From Candidatus Eiseniibacteriota bacterium (GTDB taxonomy: Bacteria > Eisenbacteria > RBG-16-71-46), in assembly GCA_041483195.1 (NCBI GenBank), contig JBGPFC010000065.1, positions 1 through 10,395 on the forward strand: DNA of 10,395 bases, in the 5' to 3' direction. The stretch's first letter is position 1, and each line of letters begins with the position of its first letter. Under the pieces are notes generated by a model. The model had not been told where the DNA came from, did not search any database, and saw only the letters and a list, made by a program, of their open reading frames with translations. Position numbers and translations under genes: made by a program. Positions 1-10,395 of the stretch are shown here, piece after piece.

Positions 1-1040
<1,040 letters not shown>

Positions 1041-1103
1041 TGCTCTCCTCCTCAGGTGGCCGGCCCGATGCGGGCCTTCATGGCGTTGGGTTTCGATCGC
1101 GAG

Positions 1104-1130
1104 GGAACACTCACACGATTGGAGCGTTCT
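1104..1130 (-). promoter_or_regulatory. CIRCE-like inverted repeat (putative variant HrcA operator)
   Basis: Minus strand AGAACGCTC-N9-GAGTGTTCC versus canonical TTAGCACTC-N9-GAGTGCTAA. The 9-bp spacer and CTC/GAG core are exact. It lies between the predicted promoter and groES. Confidence 0.65.
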
Positions 1131-1158
1131 TGAGGACCTACAACGGCTCGCGGCTGAG

Positions 1159-1187
1159 AATCTAGTGTACGCGGGAGCCGGGCGCAA
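1159..1187 (-). promoter_or_regulatory. Putative sigma70-type promoter of groES-groEL
   Basis: Minus strand TTGCGC (1187-1182), 17 bp, TAGATT (1164-1159). It sits just upstream of the CIRCE-like repeat, the usual arrangement for groE operons. Confidence 0.55.
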
Positions 1188-1411
1188 CCCAGGCGCGAAG
1201 ATACTTTATACTCGGCTGTGGGATAACGCGTTGCGAGGCCGCGCGTGGTCAGCGATCGAGGCTCTCGACGGACCGTCTTGCCCAAATGACACGGCATCTC
1301 TGGCGGTTCGGCGGGTCGTCGCCAGCGGTTTCGTCGCGGCCTCCGGGTGGGAACGCGGGAGATCGCCGTGAGGCCGGCGAGGGCCGGCCGAGCCGCGCGG
1401 GCGCGCGGCGC

Positions 1412-2308
1412 TCAGCGCGATTCTTCGAACAACGCCTGGCGTGGCGCTCCGTCGAGGAACCCGGTGCTCACGGCCGCGACGACGGTCACGTTCGACCGGG
1501 GCACCGGGACGCGCGAGCGCGTGAACACCACGATCGTGTCCCGGCCCTGGTGAAGGTAGAACGCATAGCCGCTGCCCACGTTGAATACTTCGCCGACGCG
1601 TCCGCTCACGCGCACGATGTGCGAGTCGAACTTGTCCGGGTGCTGGCGGATGTTCGCGAGGTCCGTGCCGCGCTGGCCCTGCGGCCAGAAGATCCACGCC
1701 GCGAGCGCCCCGACCAGCGCCACCGCGACCAGGATCTGCGTGCGGCGATTGGAGCGCAGCTCCTCGAGGGCGATCAGCCACCAGGCCTCGCGCAACGGCG
1801 CGAGCGTGGGGCCCGGGCGGGCCGCGACCGGCGTCGCCGGGGCGTCGTCGGGAAAGGCGATCGCGTCGAGTCGCGCGGACGCTTCGTTTTCTTCTTCGTC
1901 GTCCCCCTTCGCGGGCGCGCCGGCCCGGGCCCGCGCGGGCGCCGGAGGCGGAGCGGGCTCGAGGCGCAGACGTGGAACGCTGCTCGCAGCGGCGGTCCAT
2001 GGCACCGGCCGCGCGGGCGCGGGCGGCGCGCCGGGCGCCGCGGGTTTCGCGGAGGGCAGCATCTGCCCCGGCGGCGGCTCGGATCGCTCGCGTTCCACGA
2101 CGCCCTCGCCGGACTTCACGAGCCGCAACGGGGCGGCGGGCTCCTCCGGCGTGTCCTTCGAGAGCCGCTGCTGCTCGGAGCGCGCGCCCTCGTCCGGTCC
2201 CACCAGCCAGTCGGGGCGAGCGACGTTGGCGTCGGAGACGAACGGCTCTGAAGACGGCGACAACGCGTCTTCGTTCACCACGTGTTCGTCGGGCTCGGGA
2301 GGCGGCAT
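1412..2308 (-). CDS. Hypothetical single-pass membrane protein: long Pro/Ala/Glu-rich N-terminus, TM helix, C-terminal OB-fold-like domain (298 aa)
   Basis: SD GGAGA lies 6 nt before ATG 2308. Hydrophobic segment ILVAVALVGALAAWIFW follows the basic stretch RSNRR. The C-terminal pattern NIRQHPDKFDSHIVRVSGRV...YAFYLHQGRDTIVVF...NVTVVAAV resembles OB-fold beta strands. Confidence 0.75.
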   Translation of the reverse strand: MPPPEPDEHVVNEDALSPSSEPFVSDANVARPDWLVGPDEGARSEQQRLSKDTPEEPAAPLRLVKSGEGVVERERSEPPPGQMLPSAKPAAPGAPPAPARPVPWTAAASSVPRLRLEPAPPPAPARARAGAPAKGDDEEENEASARLDAIAFPDDAPATPVAARPGPTLAPLREAWWLIALEELRSNRRTQILVAVALVGALAAWIFWPQGQRGTDLANIRQHPDKFDSHIVRVSGRVGEVFNVGSGYAFYLHQGRDTIVVFTRSRVPVPRSNVTVVAAVSTGFLDGAPRQALFEESR

Positions 2309-2430
2309 CACGGATCTCCGATGGGGGTCACACCAACTCGGCCTCATTATCGGCGGGATGGCGGCCGGAGATGAGCGGAGTTCCCGCTCGCGTCACGCGC
2401 GTCCCGGAGCCGCTGGCGCGCGCGGCGCGT

Positions 2431-3807
<1,377 letters not shown>

Positions 3808-3829
3808 CACGCGCCGCAGCGATCCGCCG

Positions 3830-4306
3830 CTAGGCCGCGGACTGCAGCGCGAGGATCACGCGCTGGTTGTCGGGGATCTGGCTCATGTCGCCCGTGTTCT
3901 CGCTGATCTCGCGATGGATCACCCTGCCCTCGCGGTCGATCACGAACACCGCGCGCCCGCTCATGAGCGCCTCCTCGTTCAGGACGCCGTACGCCGCGCT
4001 GGTGGCGCGCTTGAAATCGGAGAGCAGCGGAAACGAGAGGCCGAGCCGGCGGGCGAACGCCTCGTTCGCGAAGTGACTGTCGACGCTGATCCCGAAGACC
4101 ACGGCGTTCAGCGCTTCGATCGTCGGGAGCGCCTTCTGAACCTCCGGGAGCTGGTGCGAGCACACCGGGGAAAACGCGAGCGGGTAGAAGACGAGCACCA
4201 CGTTCTTCCGGCCGCGGTACTCGGAAAGCGCCACGAACTGCCCGCCCGGGCCCTTCAACTTGAAGTCCGGGGCGCTCTGGCCCACCTCGAGCGACAGCGC
4301 CGGCAT
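3830..4306 (-). CDS. Peroxiredoxin (AhpC/TSA family, AhpE-like, single Cys)
   Basis: GQSAPDFKL, active site FYPLAFSPVC (PxxxS/TxxC), GISVDS, FPLLSDF and RAVFVID. Only one Cys. SD GGAGGT upstream. Confidence 0.93.
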   Translation of the reverse strand: MPALSLEVGQSAPDFKLKGPGGQFVALSEYRGRKNVVLVFYPLAFSPVCSHQLPEVQKALPTIEALNAVVFGISVDSHFANEAFARRLGLSFPLLSDFKRATSAAYGVLNEEALMSGRAVFVIDREGRVIHREISENTGDMSQIPDNQRVILALQSAA

Positions 4307-4447
4307 CTGAACACCTCCGCCATGCGGCCTGGATGGTCCGGGAGATCCTGCGGCAGACTCCCATTGAAACGCCTCGCGCGGTGCGATGGCAAATCGCCGC
4401 GGCGCCGGCGAGGCGCCTTGGGCCCGCCGAATCCGAGTGGTAAGGCG

Positions 4448-5044
4448 TCAGCGCCGCGCGGTGAGGCGCATCACGTCCTGGCTCGCGGCGGCCAGCTCGG
4501 AGGCGGTGCGCACGCCGCGCTCCGCCTCCCAGCGCGGCGCGAGCGCCAGGAACAGTCGCGCGGTGGTGAGCGCGTCGCCCAGCGCGCGATGGGCCGTCTC
4601 CGCGGGCAATTGAAGCCGGGTCGCGAGCGCGCCCAGCGAGTTGCTGCCGGTCCCGAACAGGCCGCGCGCGAGGCCGAGCGTGTCCACGATCGGATTGAAG
4701 AGCGGCGGCTGCCCCGCTGCGCGCAGGAGCGCGATGAGAAACGGCAGATCGAACGGCGCGTTGTGAAAGACCAGCGGAAGGTCGCCGCACGCCGCGCGCA
4801 ACTCCGCGGCCACCTGCGCCGGCTCTGGCGCATGCGCCACCATCGCGTCGGTGATGCCGTGGACCCGGGTCGCATCGGGCGGGATCGGGCGTCCCGGCCG
4901 AATCAGGCTCGACCAGGTCTCGCCGATCGCCCCGCCGTCGACCGCGACGCGCGCGACTTCGACCAGCGTCGCGCCGGACGCTGGGCTCATGCCGGTGGTC
5001 TCGGTGTCGAGCACGAGCACGCGCACCGAGTCGAGCAGGCTCAT
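4448..5044 (-). CDS. Stand-alone DEDDh 3'-5' exonuclease (DnaQ/epsilon-like), 198 aa
   Basis: ExoI VLDTETTG, VHGIT, ExoII FHNAPFD and ExoIII HRALGDA. Start set at ATG 5044 to avoid overlap with the upstream gene. Confidence 0.93.
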   Translation of the reverse strand: MSLLDSVRVLVLDTETTGMSPASGATLVEVARVAVDGGAIGETWSSLIRPGRPIPPDATRVHGITDAMVAHAPEPAQVAAELRAACGDLPLVFHNAPFDLPFLIALLRAAGQPPLFNPIVDTLGLARGLFGTGSNSLGALATRLQLPAETAHRALGDALTTARLFLALAPRWEAERGVRTASELAAASQDVMRLTARR

Positions 5045-5067
5045 GCGTCGCGGGAGGGGCGCGCGGG

Positions 5068-5586
5068 CTAGGGCCGCGGCGCGGACGTCGCGCCTTTCTC
5101 GAAATCGGCCCACTTCTCGCCGCGGCCGACGTGGTCTTCGCCGATGTAGCGCAGCATGAGCTTGAAGCGATCCGCCGGGACGTAGCCCGGCACGCTCACG
5201 ATGTGCTCGCCGCTGGACTTGAGAAACAGGGTGGTCGGATAGCCGCTCACGTGAAAGCGCTGCGCCAGCGCGCGCGACGTGTAGTTGCGATCCTCGAAGC
5301 GTGCCTCATCGAGCGCCTCGGCGTTGAGGCGCACGACGATGAAGTGCCCGCGCAGGTACTCGCGCACGTCATCGCGCGCGTACACGTCCCGGTCCATGCG
5401 CTTACACCAGCCGCACCAGTCGGTGTAGACGTCCACCAGGATCGGCCGGTGGGTGATCGCGGCCTCGGACATGCCCTGATTCCAATTGAGCCAGCCGACC
5501 TCGCCGGCGGCTCCCGCCATCGCGGGAGGCGCGAAGGGCAGGCACAGCAGGGCGGCGATGGCGAGCGGGGCGGGTGCGATTTTCAT
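5068..5586 (-). CDS. Exported thioredoxin-fold protein (SoxW/DUF255-like)
   Basis: Signal peptide ending AMA, ILVDVYTDWCGWCKRMD with a CxxC motif, cis-Pro loop VSGYPTTLFL, and VPGY. Confidence 0.9.
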   Translation of the reverse strand: MKIAPAPLAIAALLCLPFAPPAMAGAAGEVGWLNWNQGMSEAAITHRPILVDVYTDWCGWCKRMDRDVYARDDVREYLRGHFIVVRLNAEALDEARFEDRNYTSRALAQRFHVSGYPTTLFLKSSGEHIVSVPGYVPADRFKLMLRYIGEDHVGRGEKWADFEKGATSAPRP

Positions 5587-5643
5587 GGTGATTCCCCTGC
5601 GGCAGCGGTTGAGGAGCGCTGGGCGCGGCCCAGGCCGGCCGAG

Positions 5644-5673
5644 AGCCTATCACGCGCGAACGGCGCGCCCCAA
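5644..5673 (-). promoter_or_regulatory. Putative extended -10 promoter for the thioredoxin/exonuclease genes
   Basis: Minus strand TG-A-TAGGCT (5652-5644), with a weak TTGGGG 18 bp upstream of the hexamer. Confidence 0.35.
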
Positions 5674-5748
5674 ACCCTGGGGCGCACCCACGGCGGCGGC
5701 ACCGGCGCGGGGATCACGCGCGACGCGCGGAGCCCGGCCGCGCGCCGC

Positions 5749-6585
5749 TCACTCGTACACGGTGTGGCGGAGGGATTCGGAGATGCGCGCCGGGTCGAAC
5801 CGCACCCCGCACAACCGCGAGGTGCCGAACTGTCCGGGGTTCACCGTCACCGTGCGCCCGATGGTGTCGCGCCAGGACGCGGACACCCGCGGCGATTCGT
5901 GGATGTGGCCGCTCAGCACCAGCGGCGGCTGCCGGCGCTCGATGAATCCACGGATGGCGCGCGAGCCAACGTGGACGCGCGCGCCGATCATGTCGCAGCG
6001 CGTATCGCGCGGCGGCGAGTGCAGCACGAACACGGTCTCCGCGGCCGGCGTGAGCGCCGCGAGCTCGTCGAGCGCTTCGGCGATCGTGGGCGAGCGCCGG
6101 TTCGCGTCGAAGGCGTGCGGCTCGATGCGGCCGCCGCGGCTCACGTACCCGTCGAGCCGCGGCGGCGACTCCGGCGCGCCGTCCTCCCAGCGCTCCCAGT
6201 CCTTGAGCCCGAAGGGCGTGATGGGAACCCAGGACGATCCGGCGACGCGCACGCCGTCCACCTCGACCACGCGCCCGTGCAGCGCACGCCACATCTGGCC
6301 GTCGTGGCGATCGAGCAGGTCGTGATTGGCGGCCCAGTCGTCATTGCCCATCAACAACAGCAGGTCGAGTCCCGGCGCCGCCTCGCGCAGGCGCCGCGCG
6401 AACTCCACGAAGAAACCCTCGAGGAAGATGCGCTGGCGCTCGACGCCGTCCGCGCCGCCGGCGTGCGGGCAGAGGTCGCCGCCCAGCACGATCGCGCGCG
6501 GAGGATGCGCGGCGGCAAGCGCGAGCAGCTGCTCGTAGAGCGCGGTCTGGCCGTGAAGATCGGATGTGAACAGCCACTCGCTCAC
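5749..6585 (-). CDS. Calcineurin-like metallophosphoesterase (Icc-related)
   Basis: Five motifs in order: SDLHG, GGDL, GNDD, HSPP, SGHIHE, plus a C-terminal NPG. GTG start. Confidence 0.92.
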   Translation of the reverse strand: MSEWLFTSDLHGQTALYEQLLALAAAHPPRAIVLGGDLCPHAGGADGVERQRIFLEGFFVEFARRLREAAPGLDLLLLMGNDDWAANHDLLDRHDGQMWRALHGRVVEVDGVRVAGSSWVPITPFGLKDWERWEDGAPESPPRLDGYVSRGGRIEPHAFDANRRSPTIAEALDELAALTPAAETVFVLHSPPRDTRCDMIGARVHVGSRAIRGFIERRQPPLVLSGHIHESPRVSASWRDTIGRTVTVNPGQFGTSRLCGVRFDPARISESLRHTVYE

Positions 6586-6678
6586 GGCTGGGCTCCGGGT
6601 TCAGAACATGCTCGTGACATCTCGAAGCACAAAATCTATCCGAGCGCTCGGGCGCGCGCCAATCGGGCGAGAAACCGC

Positions 6679-6708
6679 TTGACCCGCGGTCGCGGCGCTC
6701 CGGATAAT
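6679..6708 (+). promoter_or_regulatory. Putative sigma70-type promoter for the CBM-like gene
   Basis: TTGACC (6679-6684), 18 bp, GATAAT (6703-6708), in the divergent intergenic region. Confidence 0.55.
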
Positions 6709-6760
6709 CGCTGCGCTGAATCTCGCCTGGTCGTTCCCCATGCCCTTAGAGAGGTTCCGA

Positions 6761-7990
6761 ATGCTCCGCCCGCGCCTCGCGCGCTTCCGCTTCGCGCTGC
6801 TCGCCATCATCTCGTGCACGTTGATCGCCGCAGCTGCGCACGCGAAATCCGCCCCGCGAAACCTGCTCAGCAACCCGGGGTTCGAGCAGCCGCTGGTGGA
6901 CACGCTCGGCACCGGCATACCGCACGAGCATCCGTGGATGCCGGCCGCGTGGGACACGACGCAATCGGGTCTGCCCACCGTGTTCTTCGGGCGCGATTCG
7001 CTGCTGGTGCACGGCGGGTCCTACGCGGTGAGCGTCGCGAACCTGAGCGTGCTGTTCCCGATGGGGCACAACTGGAGCCAGAAGCTGCTCGTCGGCCGCG
7101 AAGCCTGGGGCAAGGACCTCGTGTTCTCGGTGTGGACCCGGACCAACGGCCTCGATGGGCGCGCGTACATCCTGCTGCAGGCCTACCGCGACACCATCTC
7201 GAAGATGGCGATGGTGTGGGGCGTGGGGCGCGACGAGGCCGCGCACACGCTGAACATCAAGGGCGTGGACGACCCGCTGATCGACCTCGGCTGGAAGCGT
7301 GAATTCTTCACGACGCCCGAGACCGACTGGGTCCGGCGCGAGGCGCGAGTCTACTGCCCACCGAGCGTCAACATCGTGTTCGTTCGCTGCGGCATGCTGG
7401 GCACGGGACAGGTGATTTTCGACGACGCGTCGCTCACCCTCGAGGCCCCGCTTCCGGCGAAAGCCCCGGCGGTGGGCGAGAACCTGCTCGCCGATCCGTC
7501 GTTCGAAGGCGACACGAACGACTGGGAGTTCTCGGTCCCGCCCTACCGCGGGATGCGCATCGATCCCGAATCCACCGTCGTGCACGGCGGCCGCCGGGCG
7601 ATCCGATGCGCGAGCGGCGAAGGCGAGTACGTCAAGACGCGCGCCGGGGCGTGCCAGTCGATCTGCAATCGCGCGCTGGCGGGCAAGCGAGTGCGGCTCA
7701 CCGCTTGGGTCAAGACCGACAGCCTGCGCGGCAACGCGTACACGAAGATCTACGCCCACACCTTGCGGGGCATGAGGCAGGTTCCGCAGGGGCAGGGGTT
7801 CGGAGCCAGCACCGATTGGTCGCCGACGACGCTCGAGATGGACCTGCCTCCCGACACGTTCGAGGTCTGGGCGTGGCTCGCCTGGGACGCGCCGGTCACG
7901 GGCCGCGTTTTCTACGACGACGCAAAGCTCGAAGTGATCGGGCCGGCGCACCCCGCGCCCGCTCCGCCCGGGCCCACGCGAAAGCGCTGA
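6761..7990 (+). CDS. Secreted protein with two tandem CBM4/9-like (galactose-binding-like beta-sandwich) domains
   Basis: SD GAGG before ATG 6761 and a signal peptide ending AHA. Two repeats: NLLSNPGFE/NLLADPSFE, HGGSYA/HGGRRA, GKDLVFSVWTRT/GKRVRLTAWVKT, TDW/TDW, GQVIFDDASL/GRVFYDDAKL. Confidence 0.85.
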   Translation: MLRPRLARFRFALLAIISCTLIAAAAHAKSAPRNLLSNPGFEQPLVDTLGTGIPHEHPWMPAAWDTTQSGLPTVFFGRDSLLVHGGSYAVSVANLSVLFPMGHNWSQKLLVGREAWGKDLVFSVWTRTNGLDGRAYILLQAYRDTISKMAMVWGVGRDEAAHTLNIKGVDDPLIDLGWKREFFTTPETDWVRREARVYCPPSVNIVFVRCGMLGTGQVIFDDASLTLEAPLPAKAPAVGENLLADPSFEGDTNDWEFSVPPYRGMRIDPESTVVHGGRRAIRCASGEGEYVKTRAGACQSICNRALAGKRVRLTAWVKTDSLRGNAYTKIYAHTLRGMRQVPQGQGFGASTDWSPTTLEMDLPPDTFEVWAWLAWDAPVTGRVFYDDAKLEVIGPAHPAPAPPGPTRKR

Positions 7991-8026
7991 TCCCGCGCCG
8001 CTCCGCCGCGCGCCGAGAATCATGTC

Positions 8027-8056
8027 TTGACACGCGACTCATGGCGGCAACACACT
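8027..8056 (+). promoter_or_regulatory. Putative sigma70-type promoter pointing into a non-coding region
   Basis: Perfect -35 TTGACA (8027-8032), 18 bp, CACACT (8051-8056). Predicted start is about 8063, and no credible + strand CDS follows. Confidence 0.55.
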
Positions 8057-8062
8057 TGATTT

Positions 8063-8316
8063 GCGGCTGGGCAGGCGGGCGTCCTTGGCAGGGAACCCGC
8101 CCCCCGAACCGAGATCGCGTACGCTGCACGCGGTCTGCCGGCATGCGAGATGGCACGGTGTTCACGAGCGAGGTGAGCCGTGCGTGCTCGATCCCGGCTG
8201 CGCGGTGAGGGAGTCGCAGGGCGCGTGGAAGTACGCCCGAGGTGAACTCCTCACACGCGTCACGTGGGATGGATCCCCTCCCTCCATACTACGGCCGGAC
8301 CTTCCTTCGACCGGGG
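8063..8316 (+). ncRNA. Candidate structured non-coding RNA of unrecognised family
   Basis: Closing helix 8064-8069/8292-8297 encloses five hairpin arms found by eye. G-U pairs favour the + strand. It has its own upstream promoter and lies between convergent genes. Confidence 0.55.
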
Positions 8317-8324
8317 AGCGGGCG

Positions 8325-9281
8325 CTAGCTCCAACGCTTGCGCCGCAGGTACCACCACGTCCCGAGTGCGGTGAGTGCCAGCAGGCCCATCGCGTACCAG
8401 CCCCCATGCGGCCAGCGGTACTCCGGGAGCGCGAAGTTCATCCCGTAGTAGCTCGTGACCACCGTGAGCGGCAGGCCAACCGTCGCGATCACCGTGAGCC
8501 GCTTGATGATCTCGTTGAGACGGTTCGAGACCACCGAGACGTGCAGCTCGAGCAGCGTCGAGGTCTCGTCGCGGAACGAGTCCAGCAGGTCGGACACGCG
8601 CGCGAGGCGGTCGTACACGTCGCGCAGGTACGGGCGCAGCGCCGCGGGCACCGGCCGGAACTCGTCGCGCGTCAGCGCCAGCACGGTGTCGCGCTGCGGG
8701 CCCATCACGCGCCGCAGCGCCGACATGCCGCGCTTCAACCGCACGACGCGGGCATGAACGGCGTTCTGATCGCCCTCCTCGAACACCAGCTCCTCGAGCG
8801 CGTCGATCTCTTCAGCGATGCGGTCCACGATCGGCAGGTAGTGGTCCGCCAGCAGATCGAGCATGAAGTGGAGCAGGCCGGACGGGCCGCCGGCCAGGAG
8901 CTCGGGCCGCCGCGGCACCACCTCGTGCGCCGCGCTGATCGAGCGCGTGCTGCCGTCGTGGCAGGTGACGATGACGCGCTCGCCGAGCACGATGTCGATC
9001 TCGCGCAGCGTGGGCCGGTCCTCGTCCCAGCGCGCGGAGTGCACCACCAGGTAGAGATACGATCCGTAGTTGTCGACCTTCGGGCGATTGACGTGCGAGA
9101 CCACGTCCTCGACCACCAGCGGGTGCACCGCGAGCGGCTCGAGCACGGCGCGCGCGGCCAGCTCGTCGTCGCGATCGAGATCGATCCACACCGCCCCCCC
9201 GCCCTCGCGCACGACCCGCAGGGCGTCTGCGAGCTCGGCGGCGCGCGCGCCAGCGCCGTCGGCGATCCACGCCCGCGTCAC
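8325..9281 (-). CDS. corA: CorA-family Mg2+/Co2+ (divalent cation) transporter, 318 aa
   Basis: VWIDL, HPLVVED, RPKVDNY, YLRDVYD, NRLNEIIKRLT, signature YGMNF-x-LPE and two C-terminal TM helices. The GTG start at 9281 overlaps the upstream stop (GTGA). Confidence 0.93.
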   Translation of the reverse strand: MTRAWIADGAGARAAELADALRVVREGGGAVWIDLDRDDELAARAVLEPLAVHPLVVEDVVSHVNRPKVDNYGSYLYLVVHSARWDEDRPTLREIDIVLGERVIVTCHDGSTRSISAAHEVVPRRPELLAGGPSGLLHFMLDLLADHYLPIVDRIAEEIDALEELVFEEGDQNAVHARVVRLKRGMSALRRVMGPQRDTVLALTRDEFRPVPAALRPYLRDVYDRLARVSDLLDSFRDETSTLLELHVSVVSNRLNEIIKRLTVIATVGLPLTVVTSYYGMNFALPEYRWPHGGWYAMGLLALTALGTWWYLRRKRWS

Positions 9282-10201
9282 GCGGCACCCGGCGCGCGCG
9301 CCGCCGCGAGCCGCATCGCGATGCGGCAGGTCTGAACGTGGATCCGCACCGTGTCCTCGATCCGGCGCGCGTAGCCGCCGCCCAGCGTCACCACCGCGGG
9401 AATCGCACGCGCCGCGCAGCCTTCGAGCACCCGACGATCGCGCGCATCGAGGCCCTCGAACGACAGCGCGAGGCCGCCCAGCTGATCCTCGGCGTAGGGG
9501 TCCGCGCCCGCCTGGTAGAGCACGATCTCCGGCGCGAACGCCCACACGCGCTCGAGCGCTGCGTCGAGCCGCGCCAGATACTCCGCGTCGCCCGTGCCGT
9601 CGGCTAGCCCCACGTCGAGGTCGCTCGCTTCCTTGGGCACCGGATAATTCGCCTCCTGGTGAACGGAGAGGGTGAACACCGCCGGGTCGTCGCGGAAGAT
9701 GCGGGCGGTCCCGTTGCCCTGGTGCACGTCGAGATCCACCACCGCCGCGCGCCGCACCAGTCCATCGTGCCGCAGTGTCAGGATCGCGACCGCGAGATCG
9801 TTGATGTAGCAGAAACCCTCGGCGTGGTCGGCGAACGCGTGATGGAATCCGCCCCCGAGGTTGATGCCCGCCCCGCGCCGCAGCGCCTCGCGCGCGGCGA
9901 GCGTGGTGCCGGCCGCCGCCAGCCGGTAGGCGCGCACGATCTCGGCGGTGAGCGGCAGCTCCGACATCCGCGTTCGCGGGGTCCAGCGCAGATGCTCGAG
10001 GTCGTCCAGGTATTCCGCGCGGTGGGCGCGCAACAGCTCATCGCGCGCGGGCGGCTGCGGCACCAGGATCTCGCCGTCCGCGAGGTCGCGGTCGGCCACG
10101 AGCTGGGCGCGCGCGAGGGCGAACTTCTCGACCGGGAACACGTGCGCGCCGATGTCGCAGAAGTACTCTGACGAATGGACGACGGCGGCGGCGTTCGACA
10201 T
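9278..10201 (-). CDS. Histone deacetylase-family Zn-dependent amidohydrolase (HDAC11/class IV-like)
   Basis: HVFPVEKF, GGGFHHA, GFC, DLDVHQGNG, QAGADP...D and GGGY. ATG 10201 preferred; GTG 10219 is an alternative. Confidence 0.94.
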   Translation of the reverse strand: MSNAAAVVHSSEYFCDIGAHVFPVEKFALARAQLVADRDLADGEILVPQPPARDELLRAHRAEYLDDLEHLRWTPRTRMSELPLTAEIVRAYRLAAAGTTLAAREALRRGAGINLGGGFHHAFADHAEGFCYINDLAVAILTLRHDGLVRRAAVVDLDVHQGNGTARIFRDDPAVFTLSVHQEANYPVPKEASDLDVGLADGTGDAEYLARLDAALERVWAFAPEIVLYQAGADPYAEDQLGGLALSFEGLDARDRRVLEGCAARAIPAVVTLGGGYARRIEDTVRIHVQTCRIAMRLAAARAPGAA

Positions 10202-10209
10202 GGCGGGGG

Positions 10210-10238
10210 ATGCTGCCACCTTCTGGCGCGTGCGGCAA
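10210..10238 (-). promoter_or_regulatory. Putative promoter giving a (near-)leaderless HDAC-corA transcript
   Basis: Minus strand TTGCCG (10238-10233), 17 bp, CAGCAT (10215-10210) with a TG extension. ATG lies 8 nt downstream with no SD. Confidence 0.35.
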
Positions 10239-10254
10239 CGCGCGCGACGCGATC

Positions 10255-10395
10255 TGTAGTTCCGCAGTGAAAATGTCCGGGTTAACTCCGCTGTGATTAG
10301 GTCCGAGGCATGGACCCCATACCGATGTCACTGCGAGAAGCCCGACGGCTGGGCTTGTTGGAAGCCGCACTGCGAGGAGAAGTGACGAACGTACA
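10255..10395 (+). mobile_element. Left end of a probable IS1202/ISNCY-like insertion sequence (truncated by window edge)
   Basis: GC content drops abruptly starting at TGTAGTTCCGCAGTGAAAATGTCC (TGT terminus). A transposase-like reading frame begins 55 nt inside. Confidence 0.65.
10310..10395 (+). CDS. N-terminus of probable IS1202/ISNCY-family transposase (partial)
   Basis: Translation MDPIPMSLREARRLGLLEAALRGEVTNV resembles, from my recollection, the MSxxExxRLxxIxxxxxGxLT start of these transposases just before the HTH. Alternative start at 10325. Confidence 0.65.
   Translation, partial: MDPIPMSLREARRLGLLEAALRGEVTNV

Follow-up and report, generated by a model that had tools for sequence, protein, structure and literature searches.

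The window analysed here is 10,395 nucleotides (nt) of a Candidatus Eisenbacteria genome (contig JBGPFC010000065.1, positions 1 to 10,395). It contains a 334-bp gap between a + strand open reading frame (ORF) at 6740-7990 and the gene corA, which lies on the - strand at 8325-9545. Within this gap, a strongly self-complementary stretch begins directly after a promoter. A first-pass annotation had read it as a promoter-driven, multi-branched, stand-alone and uncatalogued RNA, and the comparison with relatives described below supports that core reading. Positions 8061-8288 of the + strand are almost certainly a real stand-alone structured RNA gene. To our knowledge, Candidatus Eisenbacteria are known only from metagenomes. 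A literature search found no paper on noncoding RNAs, Rfam families or riboswitches of Eisenbacteria, and the RNA appears to belong to a family not yet described.

Results

A blastn search of 60 relatives returned stretches of 70-260 nt that are 67-76% identical to the locus. Alignment A1 holds the window and 23 of these stretches (24 rows); six short matches were excluded (L021, L023, L025 and L027-L029), two of which sit where our covariance model later placed true copies, in genomes G010 and G008. A degenerate pattern made from the two most conserved blocks was used to scan GTDB species genomes and gave 65 loci, whose record titles name Candidatus Eisenbacteria (45), ‘bacterium’ or ‘uncultured bacterium’ (17) and other taxa (3). 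Nineteen of the pattern loci were identical to loci already collected, and alignment A2 comprises 70 distinct rows. The covariance model built from relatives, which we call R1, has 225 positions and 54 base pairs, and all family-wide counts rest on an R1-based alignment of 75 distinct sequences or loci. R1 gives a full-length match in the window at 8061-8288 on the + strand (156.3 bits, E 5e-36, with E-values that are rough because calibration was shortened). The predicted start is at ~8062-8064, and the locus is single-copy in its own genome.

We then asked how far the RNA ranges, using an even set of 151 genomes as a sample of the phylum; the genomes of the clade are kin, and counts across them are not independent. 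R1 matches 55 of the 59 other genomes of the window's own family (f1) and five of the six genomes of a sister family (f3), a count that includes the unpublished genome G038. It matches none of the three genomes of family f2 and none of the 82 genomes of the remaining families. A laxer R1 search of f2, also a sister family, and of a metagenome-assembled genome (MAG) of the same genus (G002, 80% complete) found nothing significant. Each matching genome has one match, except for one MAG (4% contamination) with two. In metagenome contigs, the pattern occurs in at least 119 stretches, and 61 of the 80 that were fetched match R1; the other 19 lack an R1 match, look by eye like coding or tRNA sequence and were judged chance occurrences. 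The family is restricted to a single order-level group within Candidatus Eisenbacteria.

Besides covariation in relatives, the first-pass annotation had proposed to check folding energy and had considered a conserved small ORF. Compensatory substitutions exceed those of the controls: 43 of the 54 base pairs have compensatory changes, 93.3% of cells are paired compared with 79.7% in shuffled alignments, and the covariation score is 0.450, compared with 0.196 when shuffled and at most 0.106 when partners are slid. None of 500 shuffles attains any of the five structure measures. The 57 distinct metagenome copies agree, with compensatory change at 45 of 54 pairs and 92.6% of cells paired. R1-based alignments are biased towards the structure of the model, and results from MAFFT alone guard against this bias: RNAalifold on plain MAFFT alignments finds 31 pairs with compensatory changes both in A1 (of 50 predicted) and in A2 (of 41 predicted). 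The pairs with the highest mutual information lie almost all within the structure, and the same scan adds extensions of helices P3 and P6 as well as two pairs in the 3' hairpin (columns 311-327 and 312-326). The + strand was earlier chosen from wobble pairs, and this extends family-wide: the + strand is the RNA because, across all pairs, 325 cells are G-U and 47 are A-C. Single-sequence folding of 8060-8300 settles neither reality nor strand. The + strand folds at -120.8 kcal/mol (z -2.19, with 4 of 200 shuffles folding equally well), but the - strand, at -119.4 kcal/mol, has a z of -3.09, and the proposed energy check thus does not decide.

The small-ORF check gave no sign of a conserved protein. 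No frame stays open in more than 29-32 of the 75 copies, and the lengths of the copies are spread over all three classes modulo 3. Every copy has a stop-free stretch of 51-91 codons in one frame or another.

The fold has seven helices that covary, and many of its unpaired bases are invariant. The 5' domain is closed by P1, in which the 5' strand GCGGCU (8063-8068) pairs with AGUCGC at 8212-8217; its six pairs are formed in 99.8% of cells and four of them show compensatory change. P1 is the true closing helix, and the one drawn earlier (8064-8069/8292-8297) is paired in 51.3% of cells vs 53.0% in shuffles. Inside P1, arm A (8069-8104) consists of a short P1a (GG/CC) and of P2 (8074-8084/8092-8101; nine pairs, 97.9% paired, six with compensatory change), capped by a near-invariant loop, UUGGCAG. 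P3, formed by CCG at 8109-8111 and CGG at 8203-8205 (three pairs, 99.1% paired, two with compensatory change), encloses arms B and C. Arm B (P4, 8112-8136) pairs 8112-8119 with 8129-8136; all eight of its pairs have compensatory change, 96.6% of cells are paired, and its loop UACGCUGCA contains an invariant GCUGC. Arm C (P5, 8137-8198) stacks the helices 8137-8140/8195-8198, 8153-8158/8178-8183 and 8161-8165/8173-8177 (15 pairs, 80-86% paired, 13 with compensatory change) and ends in an invariant apical loop, GAGCGAG (8166-8172); its GAGCGAGG is invariant in all 70 rows of A2. Dense pairing after the promoter had been noted in the first-pass annotation, which drew arms A, B and C much as they stand here, and all three are supported by covariation among the 75 relatives.

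Downstream of the three-way junction, a conserved purine-rich stretch, GGUGAGGG (8206-8211), leads into the 3' strand of P1 (8206-8217 for the two together). P6 follows as a hairpin at 8221-8260, pairing GCGCGUG (8221-8227) with CACGCGU (8254-8260). All seven basal pairs have compensatory change (94.8% paired); the four apical pairs are 96.0% paired in the family, and two of the four are unpaired in the window's own copy. The apical loop GCCCGA and an internal loop, (C/U)CCUC, are conserved. P6 takes the place of what had been called arm D, whose outer helix (8200-8214/8246-8260) is paired in 55.8% of cells both in the alignment and when shuffled, with 278 of 500 shuffles equalling it, and whose GGAA tetraloop is not conserved. 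Arm D had been proposed because it is the minimum-energy choice in the window's own sequence, where it forms the thermodynamic optimum (minimum free energy -113.1 vs -88.0 kcal/mol for the family structure). Two of the six helices first drawn are wrong.

The last element, P7, is a 3' hairpin at ~8267-8285 on the + strand; its 5' strand is rich in G, and both its loop and its 3' strand are rich in C. Of the 75 copies, 74 fold such a hairpin (median, 8 pairs). In 52 of these 74, at least 80% of the loop is C, and 33 copies have CCCCC as their loop. The earlier arm E was right in placing a conserved hairpin here; in register, the family favours the stem at ~8267-8285 with a C-rich pentaloop over AUGGA/UCCAU with a 9-nt loop. 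The loops of the RNA are invariant across f1 and f3. The conserved part is ~225 nt long, from 8061/8063 to ~8288, compared with the 235-250 nt first estimated.

Several details of the elements stand apart from this outline. Positions 8085 and 8091 in the loop of arm A are U.G in 61 copies and C.C in 8 (CCUUGGCAGGG vs CCCUGGCACGG), a non-Watson-Crick covariation that hints at a tertiary or protein contact. The tips of two hairpins are near-identical, ACGAGCGAGGUGA in arm C (8164-8176) and ACGCCCGAGGUGA in P6 (8233-8245), and the family consensus of both is UCAC-loop-GUGA; they could be an internal duplication or twin sites for one protein. Two copies from one MAG (L086 and L138) carry ~49 extra nt directly after the GAGCGA loop of arm C, and L042, L096 and L098 have a ~15-nt insertion, CAGUGGCAGUACAGAAC, before P7. 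These lineage-specific insertions mark positions that tolerate insertion.

The promoter can be read directly in the sequence of the + strand, as the first-pass annotation had it: a -35 box, TTGACA, at 8027-8032, an 18-nt spacer, and a -10 box, CACACT, at 8051-8056. TTGAC(A/G/T) stands at a fixed distance from P1 in all 75 distinct copies and is TTGACA in 56 of them. Likewise, in all 75 copies the -35 box is followed, 16-18 nt on, by an nAnnnT hexamer, most commonly CAGACT, CACAAT or CACACT. The conserved form (TTGACA, a spacer of 17-18 nt, cAnAcT) is of sigma-70 type, and the -35 and -10 boxes are conserved at a fixed distance from the 5' end of the RNA, as in a sigma-70-transcribed small RNA (sRNA) gene.

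We compared the window with Rfam 15, a test that took in 6S, RNase P, signal recognition particle (SRP) RNA, transfer-messenger RNA (tmRNA), M-box, raiA, OLE, ROOL, GOLLD, HEARO, 6C and Ms1. At gathering score, the whole window has no match. At E<=10, the region 7950-8400 has only three junk matches, of 13.7-14.4 bits vs thresholds of 37-95, in line with the earlier statement that the family is unrecognised. That statement had also set aside 6S, RNase P, SRP and tmRNA, and rightly: each is found on another contig of the genome above its cut-off (67.5, 263.3, 81.4 and 175.3 bits, respectively), which rules out the RNA as the genome's sole copy of any of them. A tRNA- or tmRNA-like element was likewise rejected, as no tRNA-like gene was found. 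No M-box was found in the region (Rfam at E<=10) or in the genome.

Neighbouring genes were counted at the 75 loci, each with 262-2107 nt of downstream flank. The upstream gene in the window (6740-7990, +) encodes 416 amino acids (aa) with a hydrophobic N-terminus and has no Pfam family, even at E<=10; a link to CBM_4_9 is a weak lead only. It lies upstream of the RNA on the same strand in 69 loci, ending ~75-270 nt before it. On the other side, corA (8325-9545, -), of the Mg2+/Co2+ channel family (Pfam CorA, 3.3e-60), converges on the RNA with its stop ~37 nt past it. This arrangement recurs in 52 loci. The corA stop codon ranges from ~10 to ~220 nt beyond the RNA. Upstream of corA lies a gene of the histone-deacetylase family (9278-10219, -; Pfam Hist_deacetyl, 1.2e-59), which is present in 58 loci, and 71 loci have corA or the deacetylase gene. 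We rejected corA as a constant partner: no corA was found in 23 of the 75 loci, which leaves the deacetylase gene facing the RNA directly (Pfam-confirmed in L041, L135 and L136). In f3, the 416-aa gene is not beside the RNA, and corA or the deacetylase gene is still adjacent. The spacers, from the 416-aa gene to the promoter and after P7, are not conserved.

The first-pass annotation saw no + strand gene downstream of the RNA, and this extends to the family, in which the next gene found downstream is convergent in 71 of the 75 loci. L039 alone has a same-strand gene downstream: a + strand POT-family (POT/MFS) transporter gene (2411-3733) lies between the RNA and corA, ~200 nt after P7. Six further loci (L043, L065, L068, L074, L089 and L093) have a spacing like that of L039, with a gene inserted between the RNA and corA.

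Discussion

The locus at 8061-8288 is conserved, promoter-preceded, structured, non-coding and single-copy, on the + strand. We propose a model in which the sigma-70-type promoter drives a ~225-nt RNA, with a predicted start at ~8062-8064, that would act in trans instead of as a leader, given that its downstream neighbour is convergent and changes from genome to genome. Trans action, which we infer from gene order, is quite probable, and the statement as a whole, that this is a stand-alone structured RNA gene acting in trans, is likely to be right.

In the fold described above, P1 closes a 5' domain made up of arm A and of a three-way junction of P3, arm B and the long arm C. P6 follows as a separate hairpin, and then the G/C-rich P7 with its C-only loop. 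The invariant loops and junctions (UUGGCAG, GCUGC, GAGCGAG, GCCCGA and CCCUC) may build a compact tertiary fold whose partner would be a protein or a small ligand; we favour such a partner-binding fold because so many unpaired bases are invariant and because two hairpins share the look-alike form UCAC-loop-GUGA. Work as a ribonucleoprotein (RNP) or a ligand-binding RNA is a possible main mode, if short of probable. The exposed C-runs, CCCCC in P7 and CCCUC in P6, might instead pair with G-rich, Shine-Dalgarno-like RNA, which by analogy with known sRNAs is conceivable, if doubtful, as the main mode. We consider it unlikely, and worth stating, that the RNA represents a new class of compactly folded RNA specific to an uncultured phylum: a ribozyme, a trans-acting sensor of a ligand or ion, or an RNP subunit, with the invariant loops as its would-be active or binding core and P6 docked on the 5' domain.

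Several observations weigh against this model or parts of it. The flanks are tightly syntenic, with the 416-aa gene in 69 of 75 loci and corA or the deacetylase gene in 71, which could mean a local, cis-linked role rather than one in trans. Some kin can do without the RNA or are losing it. Three well-completed f1 genomes have no R1 match. One of them, G091, has a degenerate copy at the syntenic site (L261, 2745-2963, 48.6 bits) in which P1 and the GAGCGAG loop are damaged, and in G021, a small genome of 2.2 Mb, the upstream gene is present with no RNA detected beside it (L260). In the window's own copy, the non-conserved arm D fold is 25 kcal/mol more stable than the family fold. The mutual-information scan for pseudoknots found no long-range pairs beyond the helix extensions, because the candidate loops never vary. 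A simple sigma-70 consensus scan called neither a promoter nor a terminator for the RNA, and the -10 box is weak; the scan missed it because only three of its six bases match TATAAT. The C-runs are unremarkable in DNA of ~68% G+C. Finally, only 8 of 74 copies have at least four U within the 8 nt after P7, where the U fraction is 25% vs 15% further on. P7 is at best a weak terminator because most copies lack a U-tract; it is possible that it serves as a weak terminator or a protective end, and read-through into the convergent gene is possible as well.

The alternative that deserves most attention, although we think it improbable, is that the RNA is a riboswitch-like sensor or a cis-antisense regulator of the convergent deacetylase-corA operon. 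Its fold would control read-through past P7, or the RNA would pair with the 3' untranslated region (UTR) of the operon, and the effect would be to tune Mg2+ or metal transport or the deacetylase. The closeness of the corA stop (~10-220 nt) fits such a role, as do the 71 of 75 loci in which corA or the deacetylase gene is convergent, an arrangement kept even in f3 where the upstream gene differs, the general lack of a U-tract after P7, the absence of an M-box match from the genome, and a multi-junction fold with invariant junction bases that resembles an aptamer. These points are met by others: corA, missing from 23 loci, is no constant partner, the spacer after P7 is not conserved, and in L039, at least, a + strand transporter gene intervenes. 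A stable P7 in 74 of 75 copies and a U-rich tail directly after P6 in one sister-family copy, L135, both fit a discrete RNA, and neither an M-box nor any other riboswitch was matched. A leader would lie upstream of the gene that it controls, on the same strand, and is unlikely here because the downstream gene, be it corA or the deacetylase gene, is convergent, with the exception of L039. As for an expression platform, the only strong alternative helix is arm D; as a switch that would pair the purine-rich junction with CCCUC, it shows no covariation by eye and pairs at the shuffled level. We rank this alternative below a stand-alone RNA because we found no conserved alternative pairing of the 3' hairpin with the aptamer-like domain that would make P7 a regulated terminator.

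The RNA might also be an element in the 3' UTR of the 416-aa gene, made by read-through or processing, that stabilises or regulates that mRNA. The gene's position (on the RNA's strand in 69 of 75 loci, stopping ~75-270 nt short of it) is consistent with this, as is the failure to call a terminator between the two. This reading is weakened, to the point of being very unlikely, because the promoter is universal (all 75 copies keep a near-consensus -35 box, always equally far from the RNA) and because f3 keeps the RNA without the gene beside it; nor is the sequence from gene to promoter conserved. That there is no functional RNA at all, and that we are seeing chance pairing in a G+C-rich spacer or a small protein gene, would suit the modest z of -2.19, the better -3.09 of the - strand, and the stop-free stretches of 51-91 codons. 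Against the compensatory changes at 43 of 54 pairs, the five structure measures that no shuffle reached and loops that are invariant across two families, it is scarcely credible. Moreover, none of the frames stays open across the copies and indels do not keep to multiples of three. The MAFFT-only alignments, in which 31 pairs have compensatory changes, speak against an artefact of the model.

As a stand-alone RNA, it would work most like the raiA-type orphan RNAs and, in its 3' part, like the sRNAs with C-rich loops. The raiA motif RNA, OLE, ROOL and GOLLD are orphan structured bacterial noncoding RNAs. Like the raiA type, the Eisenbacteria RNA is stand-alone and multi-stemmed, is ~200 nt long, covaries strongly, conserves unpaired nucleotides and has its own promoter. 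It differs from all four in its helices and motifs (with no Rfam match at E<=10) and in its far narrower range, one order-level group, and it is smaller than OLE, ROOL and GOLLD. The 6C RNA of Actinobacteria and RsaE/RoxS of Firmicutes are base-pairing sRNAs with C-rich loops. Here too, C-runs are unpaired in hairpin loops and other unpaired stretches (CCCCC in P7, CCCUC in P6), and CCCUC and GCCC are conserved in P6, but the Eisenbacteria RNA has no Rfam match and has a large, junction-rich 5' domain, which is absent from those sRNAs, and C-runs are less telling at ~68% G+C.

Other systems resemble it in part. With 6S it shares a single-copy, clade-wide, promoter-driven gene and a length of ~200 nt; unlike 6S, it is branched and not a rod with a central bubble, and a canonical 6S is on another contig. 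Like an M-box, it is a complex fold adjoining, in most loci, a gene for a Mg2+ channel (corA), but it sits on the opposite strand, by the 3' end of corA and not as a leader, and in 23 of 75 loci no corA was found. Such a convergent arrangement would also permit antisense control of the kind known from riboswitch-controlled antisense RNAs. In the GadY type, an sRNA gene is convergent to a protein gene and ends within tens of bases of it, as here; in the Eisenbacteria RNA, however, the neighbour varies, structure and conservation are far greater in the RNA than in the spacer, and overlap with the neighbour's mRNA is hypothetical.

In other bacteria, covarying helices together with invariant unpaired bases have marked RNAs with real biochemical roles. 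The RNA described here is near-universal, single-copy and strongly promoted in one of the main Eisenbacteria lineages. R1 allows it to be annotated in MAGs and searched for in soil and sediment metatranscriptomes, and it is small enough for probing, ligand screens and structural work without culture.

Other features of the window and of related genomes

An 11-nt perfect inverted repeat (7955-7965/8315-8325) brackets the RNA locus, with one half at the end of the upstream gene and the other at the corA stop. As a candidate element it was rejected: it is not conserved, and the repeat lengths equal those of mismatched-locus controls.

Two perfect DnaA boxes 3 nt apart occur in families f11 (11/32) and f16 (3/10), at L272-L281 and L262-L264. 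R1 finds nothing at 13 of the 20 fetched loci, paired-box loci of other families, and none of the 75 RNA loci has a DnaA-box-like 9-mer. The L272 locus seems to adjoin an rpmH-like ORF, which suggests an origin region, unrelated to the Eisenbacteria RNA.

Within the window, the + strand ORFs 5131-7302 and 6740-7990 overlap by ~560 nt in different frames, and neither has a Pfam family; probably at least one start, or one ORF, is not real. The corA ORF as listed overlaps the end of the deacetylase gene by ~270 nt, and its true start is probably later, because relatives align only from residue ~28-50 onward. A sigma-54-dependent response regulator with receiver, AAA+ and Fis-type helix-turn-helix domains is encoded at 2431-3810 on the - strand, ~4 kb upstream of the RNA.

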